DNA of 63,588 nucleotides, the filler included. It is 8 parts of 8 records of this genome, joined end to end, with 100 filler letters (N's around TTAATTAATTAA, not from the genome) between each part and the next. Parts side by side here need not be neighbours in the genome. Positions count along the whole stretch, not along the records: positions 6,409 to 15,729 come from SRR31156797_40762; 7 more parts are not named here. One strand, given 5' to 3'. Shown one piece after another: positions 6,309-58,428 of this stretch. Positions within the stretch are counted from its first letter, which is position 1, and each line of letters starts with the position of its first letter. The notes beneath the pieces were generated by a model, which worked only from the letters and a program-made list of their open reading frames with translations, ran no database searches and was not told where the DNA came from. A program made the position numbers and the translations under genes.

Positions 6309-6408
6309 NNNNNNNNNNNNNNNNNNNNNNNNNNNNNNNNNNNNNNNNNNNNTTAATTAATTAANNNNNNNNNNNNNNNNNNNNNNNNNNNNNNNNNNNN
6401 NNNNNNNN
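6309..6408. other. Artificial contig spacer (N-TTAATTAATTAA-N); six more at 15730, 23098, 31530, 40527, 53047 and 58329
   Basis: Identical 100-bp spacers with stops in all six frames. Composition and gene content change across most of them. Confidence 0.98.
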
Positions 6409-6410
6409 TA

Positions 6411-6455
6411 CCCCGGGTTAAAACCCGGGGCTATTGCTCTAATCCCTTCAGGATT
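6411..6455. repeat. REP-like palindromes at the contig start
   Basis: CCCCGGGTT-AA-AACCCGGGG (6411-6430) and AATCC-CTTCA-GGATT (6441-6455). Confidence 0.6.
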
Positions 6456-6480
6456 AAAATGCAAGATTAAAATCGGATAT

Positions 6481-6517
6481 AAAAAAACAGGGCAATATGC
6501 CTTCATATCGCCCTGTT
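6481..6517 (-). terminator. Rho-independent terminator at the end of the minus-strand operon
   Basis: Minus strand: AACAGGGCGATATG-AAGG-CATATTGCCCTGTT followed by a T run. Confidence 0.8.
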
Positions 6518-6534
6518 AATACCTAAACAAACAA

Positions 6535-6921
6535 TCATTGAGCTTTGAGCCACTCTTTGGCTTCGTCATGTGAGAAAAACCGCTCATTGATAAATTTATC
6601 ACCTCTCTCCTTCACAATATTATTAACCGCAAATTTTACGAAAGGATCGTCTTTGATTACTGTGGCAGATACTTTATATCCAACCTTTTCTGCTTCGGGC
6701 AGCCATACCTCGTTTAACCATACTTGATCGGACCGACCAAATATAACTGCCTTGGAATTATCAGTAAGCACTTTATATGCATTGTTTTCCCTCAACACAT
6801 CAATTACCATCATACATGCTTCACGGAATTTATCACTTTTAGGTGCTCCATTCCACTCTATAACAGCTGCTTCTGCTTCTGAATCGTACCATATTTTACA
6901 GTAATCAGAGTCTAAATACAT
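6535..6921 (-). CDS. STAS/SEC14 (SpoIIAA-like) small protein
   Basis: 128 aa with the pattern V.IEWNG...FREA...VLTDNS...DQVWLNEVWLP, typical of Bacteroidota STAS/SEC14-like proteins. Confidence 0.65.
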   Translation of the reverse strand: MYLDSDYCKIWYDSEAEAAVIEWNGAPKSDKFREACMMVIDVLRENNAYKVLTDNSKAVIFGRSDQVWLNEVWLPEAEKVGYKVSATVIKDDPFVKFAVNNIVKERGDKFINERFFSHDEAKEWLKAQ

Positions 6922-6926
6922 GATTG

Positions 6927-7958
6927 CTATTTTAAAAAGTTTCTAATTGATTCATTCAATTTGCCTGACTTTTCAAGGGGTAAAAAGTGGCCACATTGTG
7001 GTACCATCACCAATTCACTATTTGGAATTTTTGAATGACCATATTCAGCAATTTTCTGTGTGCACCCGGGATTCAAAAATCGGTTAGGAATCAAATTATC
7101 ATTTTCACCAAATAGGATTAAAGTAGGTTGTTTAATTTGATCTAGCTTATCAATAACAGGCTGATCAACCATTCCATGAACTGAACGAACTACGGTATAG
7201 CAGTAATTATCAAAATCAGCAGCAGATCGCATTGCTAACCTATCAGTTATTATAAACTCTGCGTCATCAGGCATATTATAAAAATTGTATGCAGCATTTG
7301 TAACAACCGCATCTGCCGGAGTTAGTTTGACAAGAGTCAGCGTCATCACATCTCTAAACCAGTCTTTTTGTCCCTCTGAAAAACGCTCAAAACCGGCTGG
7401 TGCAACTAATACTAATTTCTTCACTCTATCAGGATATTGCAATGCAGTCACCATAGATATTTGTCCACCCATACTATGACCAGTCAGCACCGCCTTCTCA
7501 ATATTCAGTTTATCCATCAATTCTACTATGATAGAAGCATAATAAGTCATGCTGCCCTCATGCGGATTTTTACTTGATTTACCATAACCTGGCAAATCCA
7601 CAGCGATTACACGGTAGTCGGATTTTAAATCTTCAATATTTTTTTCCCAGGCACGTAAATACGTTCCAAGTCCATGAATAAAAATAATGGTTTCTTTACC
7701 CTGACCTTCGTCAACGTAAGCCAATTTGACATCATCAGACAGCTCTGCGTATTTTACTTCAAATGGATATTGTAAATCTTTGGACATGCTTTCCATTGGA
7801 ATTACTCTACTATATTGCGAAGCTGAGGTTATAGTTTTACCAACTGCTTTAAATGGCATTCCAATTACACTCAATGTTTTTTTTGTTATCGTACATGAGC
7901 TCAATCCAAGCAGTGCCATCAAACTTCCTATAAGTATAAATTTCATTGTCTTTCTCAT
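6927..7958 (-). CDS. Alpha/beta-hydrolase (esterase), predicted lipoprotein
   Basis: HGLG oxyanion segment, GHSMGG nucleophile, GENDNL Asp and CGHFL His. N-terminal signal ends in the lipobox LGLSS-C. Start is 7958 or 7946. Confidence 0.85.
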   Translation of the reverse strand: MRKTMKFILIGSLMALLGLSSCTITKKTLSVIGMPFKAVGKTITSASQYSRVIPMESMSKDLQYPFEVKYAELSDDVKLAYVDEGQGKETIIFIHGLGTYLRAWEKNIEDLKSDYRVIAVDLPGYGKSSKNPHEGSMTYYASIIVELMDKLNIEKAVLTGHSMGGQISMVTALQYPDRVKKLVLVAPAGFERFSEGQKDWFRDVMTLTLVKLTPADAVVTNAAYNFYNMPDDAEFIITDRLAMRSAADFDNYCYTVVRSVHGMVDQPVIDKLDQIKQPTLILFGENDNLIPNRFLNPGCTQKIAEYGHSKIPNSELVMVPQCGHFLPLEKSGKLNESIRNFLK

Positions 7959-7969
7959 TGCTTTAGATT

Positions 7970-9568
7970 TTAGAACATTAACCATTTAAATACTATAAAC
8001 GCAGTCCATGGATCCAATGGACGATCATCATTAAAAACGCCATTCACATCCGATCCATAAGTGTCGTCGTTACTATCATAAAAATCACCTAACCAAACAT
8101 AGGCGCCATGCACTCCTATACTCATAAACGGACCAAAATTATAGGAAACTTTTGCGTTTAACTCTGTTCCTAAATTCGCCCCACCACCTTCAGGTTTTGC
8201 AACACTCATGGCATAAGCACCACCAATTTTAGTGTTTAGTTTGTGTGGTATCACATCATACGAAGCATTCACTGTTCCACCCATTAAACCATATCCCATA
8301 TTTGAGAAATCGGCAACCAATGGAGTAAAGCGATTGACTACATTTCCATGTGGGAATAATAAATAAGCACCACTACCAATAAATACATTACCAGGAGAGG
8401 CCCACATATTTCCAGTCAACACACCATTATATTTTTTATCTTCCAGACCATTATCATCACCGCTGGCATAAATAAAATCAAAGGTAATCACATCGTTAGA
8501 TGTTTGACCATAACGGTAACCACCATTCAGATTAGCACCATATCCAGAAATATCAGCACCTGTCTCCCAGTTTCCTGCATATGAAACATCGGCTATACCG
8601 AAGTTGTAATTAAAAAATCCACCTCCAAAGAAACGACCCATCATACGATCAGCGTTATGACTAAAAAATGTACCTACCCAGATGATATCCGCTGCATAAG
8701 GATTCGGACCAAAATCAAATTTAAATGTACCATTATAAGCATTCAACTGAGTTGCGTTTAAACCCTGACCAAGAATTGAAACACCACCGGCACCATTGGC
8801 ACGGTCCCGCACATAGTTTGCCGATAATCCAACACGCGTAATTTTGGCTACATGTTGCTCATACATAAGCTCAGCCATCGTTACATCATCATTTTCCTCT
8901 ATCATTGATTCGTAAAGCTTGAAGAAACCACCTTTAAAGCGGTAATAATCAGCATCTTTACGCACAGTCACACCAACACCTTCAGTACCCCAATAACCCA
9001 AACGATAACCGGTTGTAAGCATCTTATCAACGGTGGTACGATATGGATTAAAAGGTGAATCAAACATACGTTGTAACCCAAGGTTAATGGCCCAACCTTT
9101 TCCGGGACGTAGCTCTATTTCAATGTTTTGAGTTTGTAAATTTACTTGATCACCAGCCGGTGCACTACCAAAGTTCCCCCCTGTTCCGTAAGCCACATCA
9201 CCCCAAGTCCAATCTATTTCAAAAGCAGCCCTTAAGATGGCTTTACCATTGAATAATTTAGGCTGGTAAATAAAAAATGGAAGTAGGCGCTGTTCAGCAT
9301 AAGCTGTTGTCAGTGTATCACTTGTGCTAGTGGTGTTTTGACCAAACATACGGCCAATAACCTGTCCTTTTAATAATGAATTTTGAGGATAAAAATTGGA
9401 AGTAACACCCTGAGTTAGGAAGAAGGCTAAAAACTGAAACTCCCTTTCTGGTTCCCTTGGAATATCATTTTTAAAAATAGGAACGGGCTCGTTTTTAGAC
9501 AACTGAGCTTGAATCTGTGGAGATCCTACCAGTAGAAGAACTGCAATAAACAATAGAATTTTTCTCAT
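7970..9568 (-). CDS. Outer-membrane beta-barrel (porin-like) protein
   Basis: Sec signal peptide, Gly/aromatic-rich amphipathic strands, and C-terminal ...FIVFKWLMF with terminal Phe. Confidence 0.7.
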   Translation of the reverse strand: MRKILLFIAVLLLVGSPQIQAQLSKNEPVPIFKNDIPREPEREFQFLAFFLTQGVTSNFYPQNSLLKGQVIGRMFGQNTTSTSDTLTTAYAEQRLLPFFIYQPKLFNGKAILRAAFEIDWTWGDVAYGTGGNFGSAPAGDQVNLQTQNIEIELRPGKGWAINLGLQRMFDSPFNPYRTTVDKMLTTGYRLGYWGTEGVGVTVRKDADYYRFKGGFFKLYESMIEENDDVTMAELMYEQHVAKITRVGLSANYVRDRANGAGGVSILGQGLNATQLNAYNGTFKFDFGPNPYAADIIWVGTFFSHNADRMMGRFFGGGFFNYNFGIADVSYAGNWETGADISGYGANLNGGYRYGQTSNDVITFDFIYASGDDNGLEDKKYNGVLTGNMWASPGNVFIGSGAYLLFPHGNVVNRFTPLVADFSNMGYGLMGGTVNASYDVIPHKLNTKIGGAYAMSVAKPEGGGANLGTELNAKVSYNFGPFMSIGVHGAYVWLGDFYDSNDDTYGSDVNGVFNDDRPLDPWTAFIVFKWLMF

Positions 9569-9607
9569 TCTTTTGATCTTAATCTAATTCCTTAACTAAA
9601 GTAAATG

Positions 9608-9655
9608 AAAAAGGTGCAAAATAGCATGAATACTTATCATGCTACTGCACCTTTT
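9608..9655 (-). terminator. Intra-operon terminator-like hairpin downstream of the lipoprotein gene
   Basis: AAAAGGTGCA...TAGCATGA / TCATGCTA...TGCACCTTTT. Confidence 0.7.
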
Positions 9656-9666
9656 ATTTACCCTAA

Positions 9667-10179
9667 TTAATTTAATTTCAAATATTTTTGAATATTAATT
9701 GTGCCTAATGCACCACCGTTAGAACTTCCAAATCCTCCTTCTGGAGTAGGAGCTGAATTACCAATTGCAGGCTCCATTTGAACCACTTCATATTGCATAT
9801 CGTAACCAGCGGCTCCCATAGTAATTTCAAATATACCCTCACTTGTTACGGCTGAAGGAGCACTTTGATTTAATACGATTGTATAGATATCACCTACCTC
9901 TGATTTAGTTTGAACATAAGTACCAATATACTCAGTTTTCACGCCAGTTACATCATAAGATTCAACTAAATAAGTCTGATTTTCATTGAAACTTGCATAA
10001 ATTGAATCAACTGCGAAATATGTAACTAAAAGAGGTGCTACATTATCACCAGAAGAATACCATTCTCCAATTATTCCTACGCTTGTTTCATTTGTGTTAT
10101 CATCATCGTCTTTTTTACAACTGAAAAGAACTGCTGCTGCCAACATGGCAATCATTGATAAATAAAGTACTTTTTTCAT
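9667..10179 (-). CDS. Surface-exposed lipoprotein
   Basis: Lipobox VLFS-C followed by KKDDDDN, which matches the Bacteroidota lipoprotein export signal. Confidence 0.8.
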   Translation of the reverse strand: MKKVLYLSMIAMLAAAVLFSCKKDDDDNTNETSVGIIGEWYSSGDNVAPLLVTYFAVDSIYASFNENQTYLVESYDVTGVKTEYIGTYVQTKSEVGDIYTIVLNQSAPSAVTSEGIFEITMGAAGYDMQYEVVQMEPAIGNSAPTPEGGFGSSNGGALGTINIQKYLKLN

Positions 10180-10214
10180 AATATTAATTTTTAGTTTTCT
10201 TTATTGATTTTATA

Positions 10215-10222
10215 CAAATTTA
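10215..10222 (-). promoter_or_regulatory. Bacteroidota -7 promoter element
   Basis: TAAATTTG (TAnnTTTG) about 35 nt upstream of the lipoprotein ATG. Confidence 0.55.
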
Positions 10223-10398
10223 ATTTCTAATTAATTCTAGATTAACTTTGGTTTCCATTTAAAAGAGGCTGACTTTTCATGTTCTCACACCACTTTTTAT
10301 CACTATGCACTGATTAACAAATACTTACAGACAATAAAAACAACCCTGACCTCACAAACATCAACTAAACACCTAATTTACAGCAGTATACAATTCAG

Positions 10399-11427
10399 CT
10401 AACCCCATTTTATGACATTTGCCGCCCAGGCATATCCAATTCCTGCTGCTATCATTGAAATTACCGTACCAGGTTGAATTTTACCTTGTTCCAAACCTAA
10501 GTGTAATGATATAATTTGATCTATCTGTCCGGCATGCCCAAATTGACTTAAATACACAGACTGATCTTCTTTCAATCCCAGCAAATCAAGCATTACATGA
10601 TGCATGGAACGTTTGAAATGAAGTACTGCCAAATAATCAATGTCTTTTCTTGTCATACCTGACTTTTTCAAAGATTGATCGATACAATGCATCCAATTAT
10701 CCATAGATACCTCATTTAGACGTTCTTTCATATGTGCCTCCTGCATTAAGGTAAGGGATTTATATGCCTTATCCACATTGGCACATGTAATTGGAATGGC
10801 CGTGCCACCATAAACAACTCCGGCATCACGCGCCATACTTCCATCGCTCATTACATGCGAACCTAATATTTGATTGCGCTCATACCCCTTTTGTAAAATC
10901 AATGCACCACCGGCTGCTGACAGATTGAACATCATTGACATGGTTTTATCGGTATAGTCCACAAAGTCTCCATTGCGATAACCACCTGCAATCAAAACCG
11001 TTTTGATTTCCTCATCGGCCAGCATCATATCTTTAGCCATTTTTATGGCACTAATAGTAGAACAACAGCGTTGCTGTACATCTATAGCCCAGGCTTTGAG
11101 GGCACCTATTTTTTCCTGTATGTAAATTCCGCTAGTTGTTAAAGGATACTCTTTCCACTCTTCACCAATGCTTAAAACCAAATCAATATCCAGCGGATCT
11201 ATACCTGTTCTATCGATGGCATCTTGGGCAGCCCAAACGCCCATATCCTGGGTACCATCTTCTTCACCGGGAATTACCTTTTGCTCAATTCCCAACTTTT
11301 CACGAATGGCTTCAGCTGTCCACACACCATTCGCAGCTGCTGCTATTTCTTCGGCAGACTGTCTACCTTTGGGAATGTATAAACCATAACCGACAATGCC
11401 GATGGGTATATTTTTCTGTGTATTCAT
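10399..11427 (-). CDS. KAS III/FabH-like condensing enzyme (Cys-His-His type)
   Basis: IVGYGLYIP, DVQQRCCS (catalytic Cys), AVLHFK, FGHAGQID, AAGIGYAW. Confidence 0.85.
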   Translation of the reverse strand: MNTQKNIPIGIVGYGLYIPKGRQSAEEIAAAANGVWTAEAIREKLGIEQKVIPGEEDGTQDMGVWAAQDAIDRTGIDPLDIDLVLSIGEEWKEYPLTTSGIYIQEKIGALKAWAIDVQQRCCSTISAIKMAKDMMLADEEIKTVLIAGGYRNGDFVDYTDKTMSMMFNLSAAGGALILQKGYERNQILGSHVMSDGSMARDAGVVYGGTAIPITCANVDKAYKSLTLMQEAHMKERLNEVSMDNWMHCIDQSLKKSGMTRKDIDYLAVLHFKRSMHHVMLDLLGLKEDQSVYLSQFGHAGQIDQIISLHLGLEQGKIQPGTVISMIAAGIGYAWAANVIKWG

Positions 11428-11441
11428 TTCAAATTAGGTTT

Positions 11442-12953
11442 CTAATATTTTTCGTCATGTCTAAGCACTCTGCGATCGATTTTTCCGGCATTATTCAAAG
11501 GCAGCTCATCCAGAAATTCAATATACTGAGGAATTTTATATTTGGCCAGATTTTTCAGGCAGAAATCAATTACTTGTTGCTCTGTAAGATCCAAACCATC
11601 TTTTTTCACAATAAATGCTTTACCTGTCTCGCCCCATTTTTCATGGGTTACACCAATTATTGCGACATCCTTGACCTCATCCATTTGCATAATTAAGTGC
11701 TCAACTTCAGCTGGATACACATTCTCACCTCCAGAAATATACATATTCTTAATGCGATCAACTACGTAGTAATATCCTTCCTCATCACATTTCATTAAAT
11801 CGCCTGTATGAAACCATCCATCCCTAATTGTATTTTCAGTAGCTTCCTTATTTTTCCAATAGCCCGGGGTTACAGTATCTCCTTTCAATATGAATTCCCC
11901 AATCTCATTGGTGCCTACTTCATTGCCTTGCTCATCTACCAATTTTACATCGTAAAAGAAGTTAGGCGTACCAATAGAGCCTTGCTTACGAATAGCATCT
12001 GAATGATCCAGGGATGTTACATTTGGACCAACTTCCGTTAGGCCATATCCCTGACGCACTGGAACACCTTTATCTGCCCAGGTTTTAATCAACGGAATAG
12101 GCATAGCCTCTCCTCCTATTACAAAATATCGAATACGCTCAAGATTAACAGTTTTAAATTTAGACGAAGCTTCCATCATTTTTAACATAGTAGGAACTCC
12201 CCAAAAAATAGTGTGTTCATCTTTCTCCATTTGCTCTAATACAGCATCAGCGTCAAAATTGCGCATAAGTAATGTATAAGCACCATGCAATACAAAAGTA
12301 GCTAACAATACATTCCAACTACCAGTATGAAAAGGAGGTGCACAATTGATAGCTCTGTCACTTGAAGTTATATCTAATCGAATCTCAGTATTCAGACAAT
12401 TCCAGAACAGCATTTTATGAGTATACATTGCCCCTTTGGGAAAAGCTGTTGTGCCTGATGTATAGATTAGAAATATTGGATGGTTTTCATCGAATGGTTC
12501 CTCCAATCTATATGAAGGATATTTCTTATTTCCAAATTGTTCAAACAATTCCGAGAGGTTATTCATCTCTAGCTTATGTTCAACTTTTTCGAAATGATTT
12601 GCCTTTTTAATTTTATCGGCAAATTGATCTTCCCAAATAACCAAAGAAGGATCGCTGTCTGTGAGCATAAAATCCAATTCTCTGGAAGTCAATCTGTAGT
12701 TTAATGGAACTAAAGTAATCCCTGACTTTTGTGCTACAGAAAACAAGACCATGTACTCCAGGTTATTTTCGGATAGAACAGCTACCCTATCTCCTGTTTT
12801 TAAACCCAACGATTCAAAAAACCAGGCTGAAGTAGCATTTGCAAGATTATTTACCTGATGATAAGTAAGTTCCCGCTGAGTTTCATACTCTCTAAAAGCA
12901 ACCTTATCAGGGTCATATATATTCCATTTATCGAACCAATCGAAATGTATCAT
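11442..12953 (-). CDS. Acyl-CoA synthetase (FACL/MenE-like)
   Basis: YTSGTTAFPKG, QGYGLTE, WFHTGD, DRIKNMYISGGENVYPAEVE, AKYKIP, GKIDR. Confidence 0.9.
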   Translation of the reverse strand: MIHFDWFDKWNIYDPDKVAFREYETQRELTYHQVNNLANATSAWFFESLGLKTGDRVAVLSENNLEYMVLFSVAQKSGITLVPLNYRLTSRELDFMLTDSDPSLVIWEDQFADKIKKANHFEKVEHKLEMNNLSELFEQFGNKKYPSYRLEEPFDENHPIFLIYTSGTTAFPKGAMYTHKMLFWNCLNTEIRLDITSSDRAINCAPPFHTGSWNVLLATFVLHGAYTLLMRNFDADAVLEQMEKDEHTIFWGVPTMLKMMEASSKFKTVNLERIRYFVIGGEAMPIPLIKTWADKGVPVRQGYGLTEVGPNVTSLDHSDAIRKQGSIGTPNFFYDVKLVDEQGNEVGTNEIGEFILKGDTVTPGYWKNKEATENTIRDGWFHTGDLMKCDEEGYYYVVDRIKNMYISGGENVYPAEVEHLIMQMDEVKDVAIIGVTHEKWGETGKAFIVKKDGLDLTEQQVIDFCLKNLAKYKIPQYIEFLDELPLNNAGKIDRRVLRHDEKY

Positions 12954-12963
12954 TGTAATATTT

Positions 12964-14511
12964 TTAATTCTCTTGAAATTTCTTTTTTGTAAATTGATGT
13001 ACTGTTATACCAACCAATGTGCTAATTACAATGGCAGTTGAGGCTGCAATGGCCGGATTTCGGACTACTCCTGTCAAAAATTTGGTGAAAAATCCAAAAT
13101 TCAAATCAAATTCAGCCACTAAAACAGGTATTAAGTAATATACGCTAAAATGTACAACTATGGAAGTAATTGTTGCTGCCAGCGGTGCGCGGAAATCAAC
13201 TTTTTTAATAAATATCCCAAACAACACAGGTATAAAAGCAGCTGAAAAATAAGCATACACACCATTTTGAGCTAAAATCCCCACACTCAATTTTGGTGCT
13301 ACTATTTGATCCCACGAAATTACGACTGTGATTATTGCTAATCCTACAATAGCTAATTTATTGATGGTTAACAATTGCTTTTCGCTCAATTTCTTTCTGG
13401 ACAAAGGTTTTACAATATCAGATGTAATTGTAGTAGAAACAGACTGAATCAAACCTTCCAATGTTGACAAACCCGCAGAAATTAATCCGAGGATTACAAT
13501 CAATCCAATACTTACCGAAACCCAACCCTGTGAAAATGCAGCCACCACGTAAGCCGGAATTATGCCATCATTTTTCAATGGTTCACCCAAATAAGTCAGG
13601 TCAGGAAAGGTTAAACGTGCATATAATCCTGTAAATGCCACAGCAAAAAACAGCACCTCTGCAATAACAGCTACAGTCAAAAACTTATTGACTTGCTTAT
13701 CGTTTTTCAAAAGCAACGATTTGGTAATGATGTGTGGTTGCACCACCACAGCAATACCCACAATTATTTGAGCAAAAATGATTTCGTAATAATCCCTAAA
13801 AAGCAAACTTTCCGGATTAGTTGGCTTTGCCAGCATGGGATCAATGTTTCTAAGCTTTTCAATAAATCCATCTATCCCTTCCTTGAAATGCTCATAACCG
13901 GATGTCAGTAAAATGATTGCCACAACAATCATCACAACTGCCTGAATGGTATTGGTATACACCATAGAATTTGCACCACCGAACATAATATAGCCAAAAA
14001 CAAATACGACCAAACCAATCAACACATACATTTCATCGATATCCAATGTTTTCGATAACACCTTGGTCAAAGCCACGGCTATTAAAACGATGAAGGTAAT
14101 AACCAGCAATGACATAAATGCCATTAGTAATGAATAGGTTTTACTATTATAACGATCACCAATCCACTGTGCGAGAGTTAATGCTTTAGTTTTTTGTCCG
14201 TATTTCCTGAAGCTTTTGGTAAGAACAATCAACGAAATTAATGCTGCCATAGGAAAAAACACGACAAAAGATAACACCCCACTTATTCCATAATTAGCTA
14301 TAAACCCAGGGTTTACAACAAACGTGGCAGCACTCGTAATGGAAGCTGCCAGTGATAATCCCACTGCAACTGGTGAAAACTGAATATTTCCGATGGCAAA
14401 ATCAGAAATGGACTGCGTTTTTAAGGCACCACGAATTACAAAAAACAAAATAGCTGCTGCATAAATTGATATGAGCACCCATGTACCTGCGACTAAAGTA
14501 TTTGTTTCCAA
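12964..14511 (-). CDS. Sodium:solute symporter (SSS/PanF-like)
   Basis: About 13 hydrophobic segments, SLAASITSAATF, GG..SMVYTNTIQ, QPHI, SAGLST. Confidence 0.9.
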   Translation of the reverse strand: METNTLVAGTWVLISIYAAAILFFVIRGALKTQSISDFAIGNIQFSPVAVGLSLAASITSAATFVVNPGFIANYGISGVLSFVVFFPMAALISLIVLTKSFRKYGQKTKALTLAQWIGDRYNSKTYSLLMAFMSLLVITFIVLIAVALTKVLSKTLDIDEMYVLIGLVVFVFGYIMFGGANSMVYTNTIQAVVMIVVAIILLTSGYEHFKEGIDGFIEKLRNIDPMLAKPTNPESLLFRDYYEIIFAQIIVGIAVVVQPHIITKSLLLKNDKQVNKFLTVAVIAEVLFFAVAFTGLYARLTFPDLTYLGEPLKNDGIIPAYVVAAFSQGWVSVSIGLIVILGLISAGLSTLEGLIQSVSTTITSDIVKPLSRKKLSEKQLLTINKLAIVGLAIITVVISWDQIVAPKLSVGILAQNGVYAYFSAAFIPVLFGIFIKKVDFRAPLAATITSIVVHFSVYYLIPVLVAEFDLNFGFFTKFLTGVVRNPAIAASTAIVISTLVGITVHQFTKKKFQEN

Positions 14512-14523
14512 AGTATTTTCTTT

Positions 14524-15513
14524 TTAATAAATAAAACTAGCTCCGGCAAAGGCTAATCCACCACCTGAACCAATAAACATAATTGAATCGCCACGCTTGA
14601 TTTTACCCGCATTCAATGCATCTTCAAAAGCCAAAGGAATACATGCTGAACCTGTGTAGCCATAATAATGCATACTGGTTTGAGCTTTATCATGTGGCAA
14701 TTTCAAACGATCCATAGTTTCACGAATGCTATTAATATTTATTTGAGTTAAAAAAAACTGACTATAATCTTCAATCGGTGTAGCCGTTCTTTTAGATAGT
14801 TCCAATGCGATGGCTGACCATGTTTCAGGGTTTATATCCGGTGGAAATTTTTTATCTATGCTTAATAAATGTTTCTTGTTGGCCACCATATCTGAGGTTA
14901 CTGGTTTGAATGTTCCACCTGCAAAAATGCCCATATAATCGTGATATTGTCCATGAGTAATTAGTCGGCTAGCTTGAAAACCTCTATCAGAATAATCCTC
15001 AGCTTTAAGAATAAATGCACCTGCGCCGTCTGCAAACAAATTGGCTGTTTTCTTATCCAACTGATTGATATACTTACTCATGGCATATGCACCAATAACT
15101 AAAACGTTCTCATACCGTTCATCAGCTTTGATATATTTTGTTGCCACATCCAATGCAGTAACAAACCCTGCACATGCCGTATTGATATCAAACGTACCTG
15201 CATTCTTCAAACCAAGCATGTATTGAACTTTGGAAGATGTACTGGGAGAAATAAACTCTGGTGTGTCTGTAGAAATAATCAGCAAGTCAATATCTTCCGG
15301 CTTCATATTGCCACGTTCCAATGCCTCTTTCCCAGCGGCCGCAGCCAAATCAGCCGTTGACTCATCTTCAGCGCACCAGCGACGCTCTTTTATTTCGACA
15401 AACTCCTCCAACCAGTCACTCACATTTTCACCCAATAATTCATCAAAATAACTATTAGGTACAACCCTTTCAGGAACATACATGCCGTTGGAATGGATTA
15501 TTGCATTTCGCAT
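14524..15513 (-). CDS. KAS III/FabH-like enzyme with a degenerate decarboxylation site
   Basis: DINTACAGF (Cys), LFADGAGA; FLTQIN replaces HQAN and YGYTGSA replaces GNTSAA; GSGGG. Confidence 0.85.
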   Translation of the reverse strand: MRNAIIHSNGMYVPERVVPNSYFDELLGENVSDWLEEFVEIKERRWCAEDESTADLAAAAGKEALERGNMKPEDIDLLIISTDTPEFISPSTSSKVQYMLGLKNAGTFDINTACAGFVTALDVATKYIKADERYENVLVIGAYAMSKYINQLDKKTANLFADGAGAFILKAEDYSDRGFQASRLITHGQYHDYMGIFAGGTFKPVTSDMVANKKHLLSIDKKFPPDINPETWSAIALELSKRTATPIEDYSQFFLTQININSIRETMDRLKLPHDKAQTSMHYYGYTGSACIPLAFEDALNAGKIKRGDSIMFIGSGGGLAFAGASFIY

Positions 15514-15607
15514 ATTGCTAAATTTTAGTTATAGAAAGAGGAAAACTTACTTCGGAGTTGTCATATTCCTCAATATTTATCATTTATAGTGTTTACATTA
15601 AACTAAG

Positions 15608-15729
15608 TCTCTGATAAAGAAAGCTACATTTTTGAGGCTTTAGAAGTATTGAAAATCAGGAGTCCCGATTCTCGGGATGACTGATTGAAATACAAGAGTA
15701 ACGAAAAAAATGGAGTTTTCTTGCAGAGA
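15608..15729. repeat. About 122-bp nested palindromic (MITE/REP-like) element at the contig end
   Basis: Imperfect terminal inverted repeats TCTCTGATAAAGAAAGCTACATTTTT / AAAAAATGGAGTTTTCTTGCAGAGA, and inner AATCAG..TCCCGA-TTC-TCGGGA..CTGATT. Confidence 0.6.
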
Positions 15730-15950
15730 NNNNNNNNNNNNNNNNNNNNNNNNNNNNNNNNNNNNNNNNNNNNTTAATTAATTAANNNNNNNNNNNNNNN
15801 NNNNNNNNNNNNNNNNNNNNNNNNNNNNNAAAAAATGCTACGATGAAGCTCTCTATTAAAATTACCGTTTCAACTACGTTGCCGTTCTAGGCAATTCAGA
15901 GAGTATTTACTAATTAGTTCAATCAATATTTCACAAAATTTTTTCCACAT

Positions 15951-23097: not shown

Positions 23098-23197
23098 NNN
23101 NNNNNNNNNNNNNNNNNNNNNNNNNNNNNNNNNNNNNNNNNTTAATTAATTAANNNNNNNNNNNNNNNNNNNNNNNNNNNNNNNNNNNNNNNNNNNN

Positions 23198-31529: not shown

Positions 31530-31629
31530 NNNNNNNNNNNNNNNNNNNNNNNNNNNNNNNNNNNNNNNNNNNNTTAATTAATTAANNNNNNNNNNNNNNN
31601 NNNNNNNNNNNNNNNNNNNNNNNNNNNNN

Positions 31630-40526: not shown

Positions 40527-40626
40527 NNNNNNNNNNNNNNNNNNNNNNNNNNNNNNNNNNNNNNNNNNNNTTAATTAATTAANNNNNNNNNNNNNNNNNN
40601 NNNNNNNNNNNNNNNNNNNNNNNNNN

Positions 40627-53046: not shown

Positions 53047-53146
53047 NNNNNNNNNNNNNNNNNNNNNNNNNNNNNNNNNNNNNNNNNNNNTTAATTAATT
53101 AANNNNNNNNNNNNNNNNNNNNNNNNNNNNNNNNNNNNNNNNNNNN

Positions 53147-58276: not shown

Positions 58277-58428
58277 TTGTTGAGTAATTTTAGTCTGTAT
58301 AATAAAAAAGGCCGTTCTCGCGAGAACGNNNNNNNNNNNNNNNNNNNNNNNNNNNNNNNNNNNNNNNNNNNNTTAATTAATTAANNNNNNNNNNNNNNNN
58401 NNNNNNNNNNNNNNNNNNNNNNNNNNNN

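Follow-up and report, generated by a model that had tools for sequence, protein, structure and literature searches.

A conserved Bacteroidota locus probably devoted to the uptake and catabolism of polyhydroxybutyrate breakdown products

Introduction

What would bring two enzymes of the FabH fold together with an outer-membrane channel, an exported hydrolase, a permease and a coenzyme A (CoA) ligase in a single bacterial locus? The question is raised by the window, by which we mean the whole stretch of DNA analysed (positions 1-63588), made up of eight contigs joined by seven N44-TTAATTAATTAA-N44 spacers. One of these contigs (6409-15729, 9.3 kb) holds eight open reading frames (ORFs) and no others, all on the minus strand, at the coordinates at which a first-pass annotation had reported eight co-oriented genes. 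In order of transcription they encode KASa, which resembles FabH, the β-ketoacyl-acyl carrier protein (ACP) synthase III (KAS III); a sodium/solute symporter (SSS); an AMP-forming acyl-CoA ligase; KASb, a second FabH-like protein; a lipoprotein; an outer-membrane barrel; an α/β hydrolase; and a small accessory protein. That annotation had proposed a utilization locus independent of TonB, in which an ester is hydrolysed outside the cytoplasm and the resulting acid is imported and activated to its CoA ester, and it had named hydroxyalkanoate oligomers as one candidate substrate. This interpretation is supported here, all of the support coming from comparative genomics, and it can be narrowed: the locus quite probably serves the uptake and catabolism of 3-hydroxybutyrate (3HB) or of its small ester-linked oligomers, the breakdown products of the short-chain-length (scl) polyhydroxyalkanoate (PHA) polyhydroxybutyrate (PHB). 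PHB and related polyesters are important both as carbon stores of microbes and as commercial bioplastics, and it is poorly described how their soluble fragments pass the Gram-negative envelope and enter the metabolism of anaerobes. For the cluster and its unusual FabH homologue we found no description in the full-text literature, a search whose coverage lies outside most subscription journals.

Conservation of the locus

Among 8000 candidates scored, the barrel had 818 database relatives at E <= 1e-3, and no functional name was attached to any of the 120 relatives listed. A scan with one genome per species placed barrel relatives in 394 genomes; the best 80 of these, all from Bacteroidota, served as our locus set, and all ORFs of the 80 loci were clustered into families. 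The barrel family was present in 79 loci, the lipoprotein and the hydrolase in 74 each, the SSS permease in 61, a KAS III-like protein in 54 and the ligase in 53, followed by a short-chain dehydrogenase/reductase (SDR, 247 aa; 51), a tetratricopeptide repeat (TPR)-like protein (476 aa; 42), a thiolase (36), a CoA-transferase (436 aa; 13) and the 128-aa accessory protein (7). The lipoprotein gene adjoins the barrel gene in 74-76 of the 80 loci, and lipoprotein, barrel and exported esterase are nearly always adjacent. Three gene orders were distinguished: order A, TPR protein, thiolase, SDR, KASa, SSS, ligase, lipoprotein, barrel, hydrolase; order B, thiolase, SDR, SSS, CoA-transferase, KASa', KASb, lipoprotein, barrel, hydrolase; and order C, thiolase, SDR, KASa, SSS, ligase, KASb, lipoprotein, barrel, hydrolase. 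The last is that of the window's own clade (L002, L003, L004 and L010), with no thiolase visible in L003. Absence of a conserved gene order had been set beforehand as a refuting test for the first-pass annotation; the order is kept across the 80 relatives, and the arrangement of the eight genes is far beyond chance.

In the window a contig-joining spacer (15730..15829) interrupts the locus 216 bp upstream of KASa; its counterpart on the other side lies at 6309-6408. In relatives, thiolase and SDR genes lie just past the equivalent of this contig end, the SDR gene of close relatives ending 9-137 bp upstream of KASa, and judging from L002, L004 and L010 the genes cut off are most likely SDR and thiolase. 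A tblastn search of the window's other seven contigs with the orthologues of thiolase, SDR, TPR protein and CoA-transferase found none of them, the sole match being that of the hydrolase query to the locus's own hydrolase gene.

CoA activation and the cytoplasmic route to acetyl-CoA

Profile searches against Pfam and NCBIfam assigned two KAS III folds, an SSF domain, AMP-binding domains and an Abhydrolase_1 domain among the eight proteins, and gave no assignment for those of 170, 532 and 128 aa. The 515-aa permease (12964-14511, minus strand) matches PF00474 with an E-value of 1.6e-37; its best NCBIfam equivalog is PanF (113 bits, below the cut-off of 328). Where at least 7 kb of DNA was available upstream of the barrel, which held for 57 loci, the permease was present in 52. 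We regard it as an inner-membrane importer, a direction of transport that we infer.

The 503-aa ligase (11442-12953, minus strand) has AMP-binding and AMP-binding_C domains and falls below every NCBIfam equivalog cut-off; its nearest solved relatives are a feruloyl-CoA synthetase/fatty-acyl-CoA synthase (8wev/8weu, 323 bits) and FadD13. Forty-two of the 57 loci encode this ligase, 12 a CoA-transferase, none both and three neither. KASa accompanies the ligase in 38 of its 42 loci, while all 12 transferase loci have KASa' and KASb. The best solved relative of the transferase is 4-hydroxybutyrate CoA-transferase 3gk7 (352.7 bits). Since two unrelated makers of CoA thioesters replace each other at this position, we argue that the step is the CoA activation of a small acid, as the first-pass annotation had supposed.

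The thiolase of the relatives is of the acetyl-CoA acetyltransferase type (TIGR01930, 502.8 bits). Their SDR is FabG/PhaB-like (NF004198, 303.4 bits against a cut-off of 296), scores 262.9 against the acetoacetyl-CoA reductase model (cut-off 302.1) and is less like 3HB dehydrogenase (PRK12429, 209.8 against 258). Neither a hydratase nor an acyl-CoA dehydrogenase is among the conserved families of the 80 loci. Judged by these assignments, activation, an (R)-type 3-oxoacyl reductase and an acetoacetyl-CoA thiolase form a minimal predicted route from (R)-3-hydroxybutyrate to two acetyl-CoA. The ligase is on the window's contig; thiolase and reductase, like the depolymerases described below, were seen only in the clusters of relatives, 51 of the 57 loci having the SDR and 36 the thiolase.

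Polyhydroxyalkanoate genes in related clusters

What links this route to PHA are the phaEC-phaB neighbours, the clustered scl-PHA depolymerases, a MaoC hydratase and an adjacent acetoacetate-CoA ligase. In six Saprospiraceae-type loci (L053, L061, L064, L067, L075 and L077), the SSS-ligase-lipoprotein-barrel-hydrolase module has PHA synthesis genes as neighbours. Profile scores, taken on proteins of L053 and L064, were 445 and 434.7 bits for class III PhaC (cut-off 365.3), 31.4 for the PhaE-like protein (cut-off 25.7) and 350 for the acetoacetyl-CoA reductase PhaB (cut-off 302.1).

The genome of Algivirga pacifica JCM 18326 contains, besides one locus of our set (L057), a second cluster (L161) in which a LytTR regulator, an SSS permease, a TonB-dependent receptor, a KASa orthologue, a ligase, a hydrolase paralogue and three secreted proteins are encoded on one strand. 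Identity to the window's proteins is 56% for the permease, 61% for KASa (with its TQIN and GYTGS motifs), 54% for the ligase and 35% for the hydrolase paralogue, which has no signal peptide. The three secreted proteins are extracellular type-1 scl-PHA depolymerases by profile score (274, 267.2 and 280.4 bits, cut-off 150), the last of them carrying an fn3 domain, and the ORFs of ligase and hydrolase, and of hydrolase and depolymerase, overlap by 8 nt. A search with the KAS of this cluster across 201 genomes of Algivirga's order found eight carriers, which combine SSS, SDR, KAS, ligase, hydrolase and TPR protein with either a TonB-dependent receptor or the lipoprotein and AlgE-like barrel. One of them (L173) has a type-1 depolymerase (237.6 bits) in its KAS cluster. 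At the same locus an acetoacetate-CoA ligase (L173:5153-7090; TIGR01217, 834.9 bits, cut-off 520.9) is transcribed towards the depolymerase gene that ends the cluster; its separate presence suggests that acetoacetate is probably not what the ligase within the cluster activates.

We then seeded a metagenome scan with 12 divergent KASa-type sequences having the Cys/Thr/Tyr (C/T/Y) residues described below, and took the best 80 of 578 relatives as loci. The KAS ORF could be picked in 67 of the 80, and the C/T/Y motifs were present in 63 of the 67. Twenty-eight loci had two or more ORFs on either side of the KAS; in 22 of them a hydrolase was encoded no more than two genes away, in 19 a ligase or transferase was, and in 15 both were. 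The AlgE-like barrel was found in only one of the 67, and the other loci showed one of three sets. The first (L132-type) combines a large TonB-type barrel and a major facilitator superfamily permease with a TetR regulator and a MaoC (R)-hydratase, the second is a Liv-type ATP-binding cassette (ABC) transporter together with a binding protein, and the third pairs a TonB receptor and an SSS permease. This variation of the transport parts with the envelope, around a constant enzymatic core, is the signature of a catabolic uptake pathway. Type-1 depolymerases occurred in the KAS clusters of L158 (294.7 bits) and L091 (294.3 bits) and, by tblastn only, of L160, and L135 carries a PhaC_N protein. 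With thiolase and SDR in relatives, phaE/phaC/phaB in six loci and depolymerases in five (L161, L173, L158, L160 and L091), the earlier suggestion of hydroxyalkanoate oligomers as candidate substrate has gained in substance. Beside the C/T/Y KAS of four metagenome loci we also observed regulators that are 406-456 aa long and contain a pair of TetR_N domains (L081:11132-12352, L083:9764-11134, L087:4757-6010 and L113:6776-7999).

In five carrier genomes we found no PHA synthase (a Caulobacter control was positive), and on this ground we rejected PHB synthesis by carriers with Bacteroidales-type loci; for the six Saprospiraceae-type loci with phaEC, PHB synthesis is possible. Several cluster carriers are labelled Lentimicrobium or Lentimicrobiaceae. 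This overlaps, as circumstantial evidence, with a PHB-fed anaerobic reactor for which the clone counts given in PMC6066499 assign 20 of 100 16S clones to Lentimicrobiaceae and 14 of 100 to Prolixibacteraceae.

The envelope proteins

The 532-aa protein (7970-9568, minus strand) has a signal peptide and a C-terminal Phe. Its AlphaFold model, for which 16 relatives were aligned, has 18 long strands and is of moderate confidence (pLDDT 62, pTM 0.67). Foldseek ranked AlgE (4azl) first (E 1.8e-17, TM 0.53/0.65), followed by Campylobacter MOMP and OccK/OprD channels (E 1e-8 to 1e-9), sequence identity to AlgE/OprD-type structures being 12-14%. The Alginate_exp profile PF13372 scores the window's barrel at 13.9 bits, below the cut-off of 25.2, and matches five of the 16 aligned relatives at E <= 0.1 (best 6.9e-5). 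The families conserved around the barrel in the 80 loci (lipoprotein, hydrolase, SSS, KAS, ligase, SDR, thiolase, TPR protein and CoA-transferase) include no alginate synthesis or export genes; alg genes were not searched for by name. As modelled, the protein is an outer-membrane channel of 18 strands with an AlgE/OprD-like fold and no plug; together with the paired lipoprotein, it agrees with a utilization locus that does without TonB.

This lipoprotein (170 aa; 9667-10179, minus strand) has the lipobox LFSC, followed by KKDDDD. A lipobox-like Cys is present in 77 of 79 ORFs of the family, with at least two Asp or Glu among the next six residues in 75 of the 77, an acidic run that we take to resemble the Bacteroidota surface-export signal. 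The model (pLDDT 86.8) shows eight antiparallel strands forming a barrel. Foldseek gave no match for it at E <= 0.001, and VIA-align returned APCDD1 (Z 10.1, rmsd 4.5, 125 residues aligned), the lipocalin Tp0751 (Z 10.0, rmsd 2.7, 99 aligned) and a lipocalin-family protein of Bacteroides ovatus (Z 9.7, rmsd 3.7, 106 aligned). By its modelled fold the protein is lipocalin-like, and by its signal it is probably surface-exposed.

The 352-aa hydrolase (6927-7985, minus strand) matches Abhydrolase_1 with an E-value of 1e-37. Its lipobox, LSSC, is not followed by an acidic run; a hydrophobic N-terminus is present in 71 of 73 barrel-adjacent copies, and 82 of the 83 sequences aligned keep Ser171, Asp296 and His333. 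Among the solved relatives are 4f0j, MhpC and, over the N-terminal half only, the PHB depolymerase 8ynv (E 3.2e-22). These features make the protein a candidate periplasmic esterase, anchored as an exported lipoprotein, and fit the earlier claim of ester hydrolysis outside the cytoplasm. Eight loci additionally encode a cytoplasmic paralogue of the esterase, which suggests that ester-linked oligomers reach the cytoplasm. The 128-aa protein (6535-6921, minus strand) is possibly a STAS/SEC14-like accessory protein: its nearest ESM-Atlas clusters are so named (score 0.95), a lead only, and PF11964 occurs in 13% of one cluster.

The FabH-fold enzymes

KASa (329 aa; 14524-15513, minus strand) matches the N- and C-terminal ACP_syn_III domains (PF08545, E 2.4e-25; PF08541, E 7.6e-22) and falls below the cut-offs for FabH (NF006829, 236.9 against 249; TIGR00747, 206.1 against 292.1). 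It aligns end to end with the solved FabHs 2ebd and 1zow and keeps the catalytic Cys, with Thr at the position of the catalytic His (TQIN for HQAN) and Tyr at that of the catalytic Asn (GYTGS for GNTSA). The combination Cys/Thr/Tyr is common to all 52 KASa-type sequences. When 1.84 billion cluster representatives were searched with KASa, 14,138 matched at E <= 1e-3; from the best 150 of these, 128 full-length sequences were aligned, the window's included, of which 101 have Cys/His/Asn and 18 Cys/Thr/Tyr. The 18 include most of the top-scoring full-length matches, which places KASa in a discrete subfamily. By these residues KASa is not a canonical KAS III, and because His and Asn are absent it would be without the decarboxylative Claisen step; the acyl-Cys half-reaction should, from FabH chemistry, still be possible. 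A KAS-hydrolase fusion (P0159) met among the ORFs looks chimeric or frameshifted and was discarded.

KASb (342 aa; 10399-11427, minus strand) scores 455.3 bits, above the cut-off of 315, on NF005308 (PRK06840, '3-oxoacyl-ACP synthase'), and its orthologues in four of the five carrier genomes score 452-468 bits. Its motifs RCC, LHFKR and GHAGQ are kept in all 20 KASb-type sequences, giving each of the 20 the Cys, a His shifted by one column and a His in place of Asn. KASb occurs in 17 of the 57 loci, and its weak solved relatives include ChlB3, CerJ, DpsC and PqsC. In metagenome loci of other lineages (L095:79-2654, L097, L126 and L135:3224-4276), KASb-like genes are found paired with another ligase gene and separate from the set of KASa, ligase and hydrolase, which hints at two sub-modules.

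Both proteins appear to belong to the pathway rather than to be condensing enzymes of fatty-acid synthesis. The first-pass annotation had remarked that ACP, KAS I/II and a SusC/D pair are absent from the contig, which is true and uninformative, the contig carrying only the eight genes. The presence of an ACP gene just beyond the contig had been put forward as a refuting observation; in the five carrier genomes, no ACP (PP-binding) gene lies on the cluster's contig region. A canonical FabH above cut-off is encoded elsewhere in four of the five. Other FabH paralogues in these genomes stand beside small PP-binding (ACP) genes (G001:C8:187918-189156, G001:C10:57400-59058 and G002:C85:5631-6844) and probably represent separate, biosynthetic KAS III systems. 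A reading of the locus as flexirubin or dialkylresorcinol synthesis was rejected on profile scores (DarB-type models 42-46 bits against cut-offs of 450-550; FlxB 223 against 340).

Discussion

Considering these results together, the window would contain most of a conserved locus that scavenges PHB products. The gene content and order, the signal and active-site motifs, the folds and the genomic associations are what the analysis shows; we infer the substrate and every reaction, the role of the KAS proteins included. In the scheme that we favour, the lipocalin-like surface lipoprotein and the AlgE/OprD-like 18-strand channel would bring oligomers over the outer membrane without TonB, the exported Ser-Asp-His esterase would trim them in the periplasm, and the SSS permease would import 3HB and perhaps also its dimer. 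The ligase, or in other lineages a hydroxybutyrate-type CoA-transferase, would then form the CoA thioester, from which the FabG/PhaB-like (R)-specific reductase and the thiolase, encoded in relatives just upstream of KASa, at a place past the end of the window's contig, would yield acetyl-CoA. The locus is best described as a new form of the use of PHB products, in which a channel independent of TonB and assisted by a lipocalin is combined with a periplasmic esterase, a symporter and a CoA activation step.

Several observations weigh against this assignment. Every link to PHA is a gene-neighbourhood association, and depolymerases adjoin the cluster in just two of the eight order-level carriers; in the metagenome loci they were found, by tblastn, only in L158, L160 and L091. 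The contig of the locus encodes no depolymerase, thiolase or reductase and none was found on the window's other seven contigs, and a PF10503 esterase was not seen in two of the five carrier genomes. The hydrolase is equally near to C-C hydrolases and lactonases, and on the NCBIfam models of PHA depolymerases its scores stay well under the cut-offs (111.5 against 300, 62.7 against 250.6). The nearest solved relatives of the ligase use feruloyl and fatty acyl substrates, and the SSS permease has no characterized close relative. Moreover, the classical pathway needs no FabH-like enzyme, so that the scheme assigns no reaction to the best-conserved of the cytoplasmic genes.

These points leave room for a locus of the same type of uptake and activation that acts on another small ester or hydroxy acid, such as 4-hydroxybutyrate or lactone derivatives, hydroxycinnamate esters or short acyl esters, with PHA as one substrate among them or as a coincidental neighbour. 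We consider this unlikely. It would accommodate a generic hydrolase family that also comprises MhpC, BphD, PcaD and esterases, a ligase whose best solved relative is a feruloyl-CoA synthetase, a transferase whose best solved relative acts on 4-hydroxybutyrate, and the fact that PF10503 includes feruloyl and acetylxylan esterases. However, the clustered depolymerases pass the specific model for type-1 scl-PHA enzymes (237-295 bits, cut-off 150), and phaEC-phaB, the acetoacetate-CoA ligase, the MaoC (R)-hydratase and a thiolase of the acetoacetyl-CoA type all indicate (R)-3-hydroxyacyl units, while 4-hydroxybutyryl-CoA dehydratase, enoyl-CoA hydratase/aldolase and acyl-CoA dehydrogenase are not among the families conserved in the 80 loci.

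Compared with the classical extracellular use of PHB, by secreted PhaZ, 3HB-oligomer hydrolase, 3HB dehydrogenase, acetoacetate activation and thiolase, the catabolic scheme proposed here is alike in its logic and its end products: it comprises secreted depolymerases in related clusters, a candidate oligomer esterase, CoA activation and, in relatives, an (R)-specific oxidoreductase with a thiolase predicted to lead to acetyl-CoA. Unlike the classical system, the locus adds a dedicated outer-membrane channel with a surface lipoprotein and an SSS permease, has a FabG/PhaB-like reductase in place of a clear BdhA (PRK12429, 209.8 against 258) and one or two FabH-fold enzymes, and has no depolymerase on the window's contig. 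Its layout recalls the polysaccharide utilization loci of the SusC/SusD type, in which surface lipoprotein, outer-membrane transporter, periplasmic hydrolase, inner-membrane permease and cytoplasmic enzymes are likewise co-regulated. It differs from them in that none of the eight proteins has a TonB_dep_Rec, Plug or SusD Pfam match, in having an 18-strand AlgE/OprD-like barrel and a lipocalin-like domain of 150 residues, and in a substrate that is predicted not to be a glycan, whereas sister clusters in another order do employ a TonB-dependent receptor.

The barrel shares its 18-strand monomeric fold with AlgE and with the OprD/OccK channels of Pseudomonas, of which the OccK channels favour small carboxylates; it differs from them in its low sequence identity (12-14%) and in an Alginate_exp score below the cut-off. 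That AlgE is itself an exporter fits the opposite direction of flow. On this reading the locus would work like PqsABCD or OleABCD: the two KAS III-like enzymes would condense an imported acid after its activation, the hydrolase would set the product free, and the barrel would export it. The parts list agrees as well, since a ligase, a FabH-like enzyme, an α/β hydrolase and an SDR also occur together in OleABCD and the Pqs pathway, and KASb retains its Cys and two His. We nevertheless judge such a biosynthetic role very unlikely. The context of the locus argues for import: the outer-membrane part in relatives is a TonB-dependent receptor, an importer, the other transport parts are ABC systems with solute-binding proteins and symporters, secreted depolymerases lie within the same clusters, and ACP, dehydratase and an inner-membrane exporter are not conserved. 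The His and Asn of decarboxylative condensation are absent from all 52 KASa-type sequences. The non-canonical FabH homologues CerJ, ChlB3, DpsC and PqsBC, which also use the thiolase/FabH fold outside the initiation of fatty-acid synthesis, keep the His, and an Asp or Asn, beside the nucleophile and act in the synthesis of secondary metabolites; KASa differs in having Thr and Tyr there and in its catabolic, transport-linked setting. OleABCD does bring together the same four superfamilies (FabH/thiolase-like, α/β hydrolase, AMP-ligase and reductase), and OleA performs a non-decarboxylative Claisen reaction. However, KASa matches solved OleA chains over residues 32-156 only (E ~1e-16) and has neither the His nor the Asn, the hydrolase is exported, and the ligase can be exchanged for a CoA-transferase, as fits CoA activation and not a β-lactone synthetase.

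Least probable of all, and likewise very unlikely, is a salvage route in which a short or branched carboxylic acid is imported, converted to its acyl-CoA and passed as primer to fatty-acid synthesis by a FabH-like enzyme: it would suit the FabH fold, the weak similarity between the ligase and MbcS, a branched-chain acyl-CoA synthetase (233.7 bits, cut-off 850), and the idea that a Cys-only FabH could serve as acyl-CoA:ACP transacylase, but condensation would be beyond KASa, four of the five carrier genomes have a separate canonical FabH, the cluster has no ACP nearby while other FabH paralogues in the same genomes adjoin ACP genes, and the exported esterase, the thiolase and the depolymerases would have no role.

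Within the favoured scheme of PHB-product catabolism, KASa most likely acts in acyl transfer, or in the thiolytic cleavage of 3HB units, on a 3HB or 3HB-oligomer thioester; retro-Claisen cleavage of acetoacetyl-CoA and transfer to ACP are possible alternatives. A more specific proposal, which we put forward as doubtful, is that KASa represents a new kind of depolymerizing transacylase that requires a single CoA activation per chain. The ligase or CoA-transferase would load CoA onto the carboxyl end of an imported 3HB oligomer, the Cys of KASa would attack the neighbouring oxo-ester so that (R)-3HB-CoA leaves as the alcohol, and CoA would release the shortened acyl chain from KASa as a new CoA thioester. 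Thr and Tyr, replacing the His/Asn enolate hole, would donate protons to the leaving alkoxide, and KASb may heterodimerize with KASa. If this were true, thiolytic disassembly of the polyester would save ATP in energy-poor anaerobes. PhaZ1 of Ralstonia eutropha acts on intracellular granules and is not of the FabH fold. It provides a precedent for the chemistry proposed for KASa, as its thiolysis of PHB by CoA gives 3HB-CoA directly, according to the statement in PMC3430594 that cites Uchino et al. 2007.

The locus would offer a full parts list for the use of PHB fragments, with the Cys/Thr/Tyr FabH homologue as a marker gene. Should the marker enzyme be a true thiolytic or transacylating depolymerase, this would be a new reaction for the thiolase superfamily, of possible use in recycling bioplastics into CoA esters or chiral hydroxy acids.

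Further features of the window and of related loci

The eight ORFs are mostly spaced by 5-14 bp, those of barrel and hydrolase overlapping by 16 bp. Longer gaps occur at two places only, 219 bp on the 5' side of the lipoprotein gene (10180..10398, minus strand) and 98 bp on its 3' side. The larger gap may hold an internal promoter: it contains TAAATTTG (10222-10215, 36 nt 5' of the ATG of the lipoprotein gene), which we take to resemble the Bacteroidetes -7 consensus TAnnTTTG. A scan with a sigma-70 model gave 24 sites against a mean of 35.6 in shuffled sequence, a model that is uninformative for this phylum. By its sequence, a strong intrinsic terminator (6486..6517, minus strand) closes the operon; it lies 18 nt past the stop codon of the 128-aa gene and consists of a stem of 14 bp, six of them G-C pairs, and a T run behind it.

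Two further hairpins were noticed on the minus strand. One, GGTGCA...TGCACC followed by a T run (9607-9652), lies between the lipoprotein and barrel genes and could be an attenuator setting the ratio of the two products. The other, a small TCCCGA-GAA-TCGGGA hairpin followed by a T-rich stretch (15663-15677), stands in the 216-bp leader of KASa, so that the window's organism may be arranged differently upstream of this gene. A single metatranscriptome run (X1) contained 7% of the sampled words; its contigs match pieces of the 128-aa gene, the SSS gene, the barrel gene (156 nt, 0 differences) and the lipoprotein gene (361 nt, 0 differences) and leave most of the locus uncovered, which records presence in an RNA library and is neither proof of transcription nor a habitat call.

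The spacers of the window are at 6309-6408, 15730-15829, 23098-23197, 31530-31629, 40527-40626, 53047-53146 and 58329-58428. Because they join separate contigs, the thiamine pyrophosphate (TPP) enzyme and the MatE gene that flank the locus are not its true neighbours. The G+C content of the contigs ranges from ~0.31 (22-31 kb) to ~0.55 (34-40 kb), and the bin behind the window may mix organisms.

Of the families in the relatives, the 476-aa cytoplasmic helical protein (L009:1191-2624 and 41 other loci) has no Pfam or NCBIfam match and accompanies the barrel and the TonB-receptor versions of the cluster alike. The ESM Atlas places the 476/477-aa protein in a cluster that is named TPR-containing, a name to be taken as a lead only, and that is restricted to Bacteroidota; the protein may be a regulator of the pathway. 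Giant ORFs of 2817-2839 aa occur on the 3' side of the hydrolase in four loci (L006:13134-21590, L009:13072-21588, L039:6435-14885 and L040:13136-21589), and that of L009, with GH94 supersandwich, GH94 catalytic and glucoamylase domains, is cyclic-glucan-synthase-like; they are probably unrelated neighbours. Also downstream, L018 (12931-18127) and seven other loci share a recurring trio of genes: one, read from the other strand, for a radical-SAM protein, one for a small OMP_b-brl_2 protein and one for a CotH/LTD protein that bears a type-IX secretion tail.

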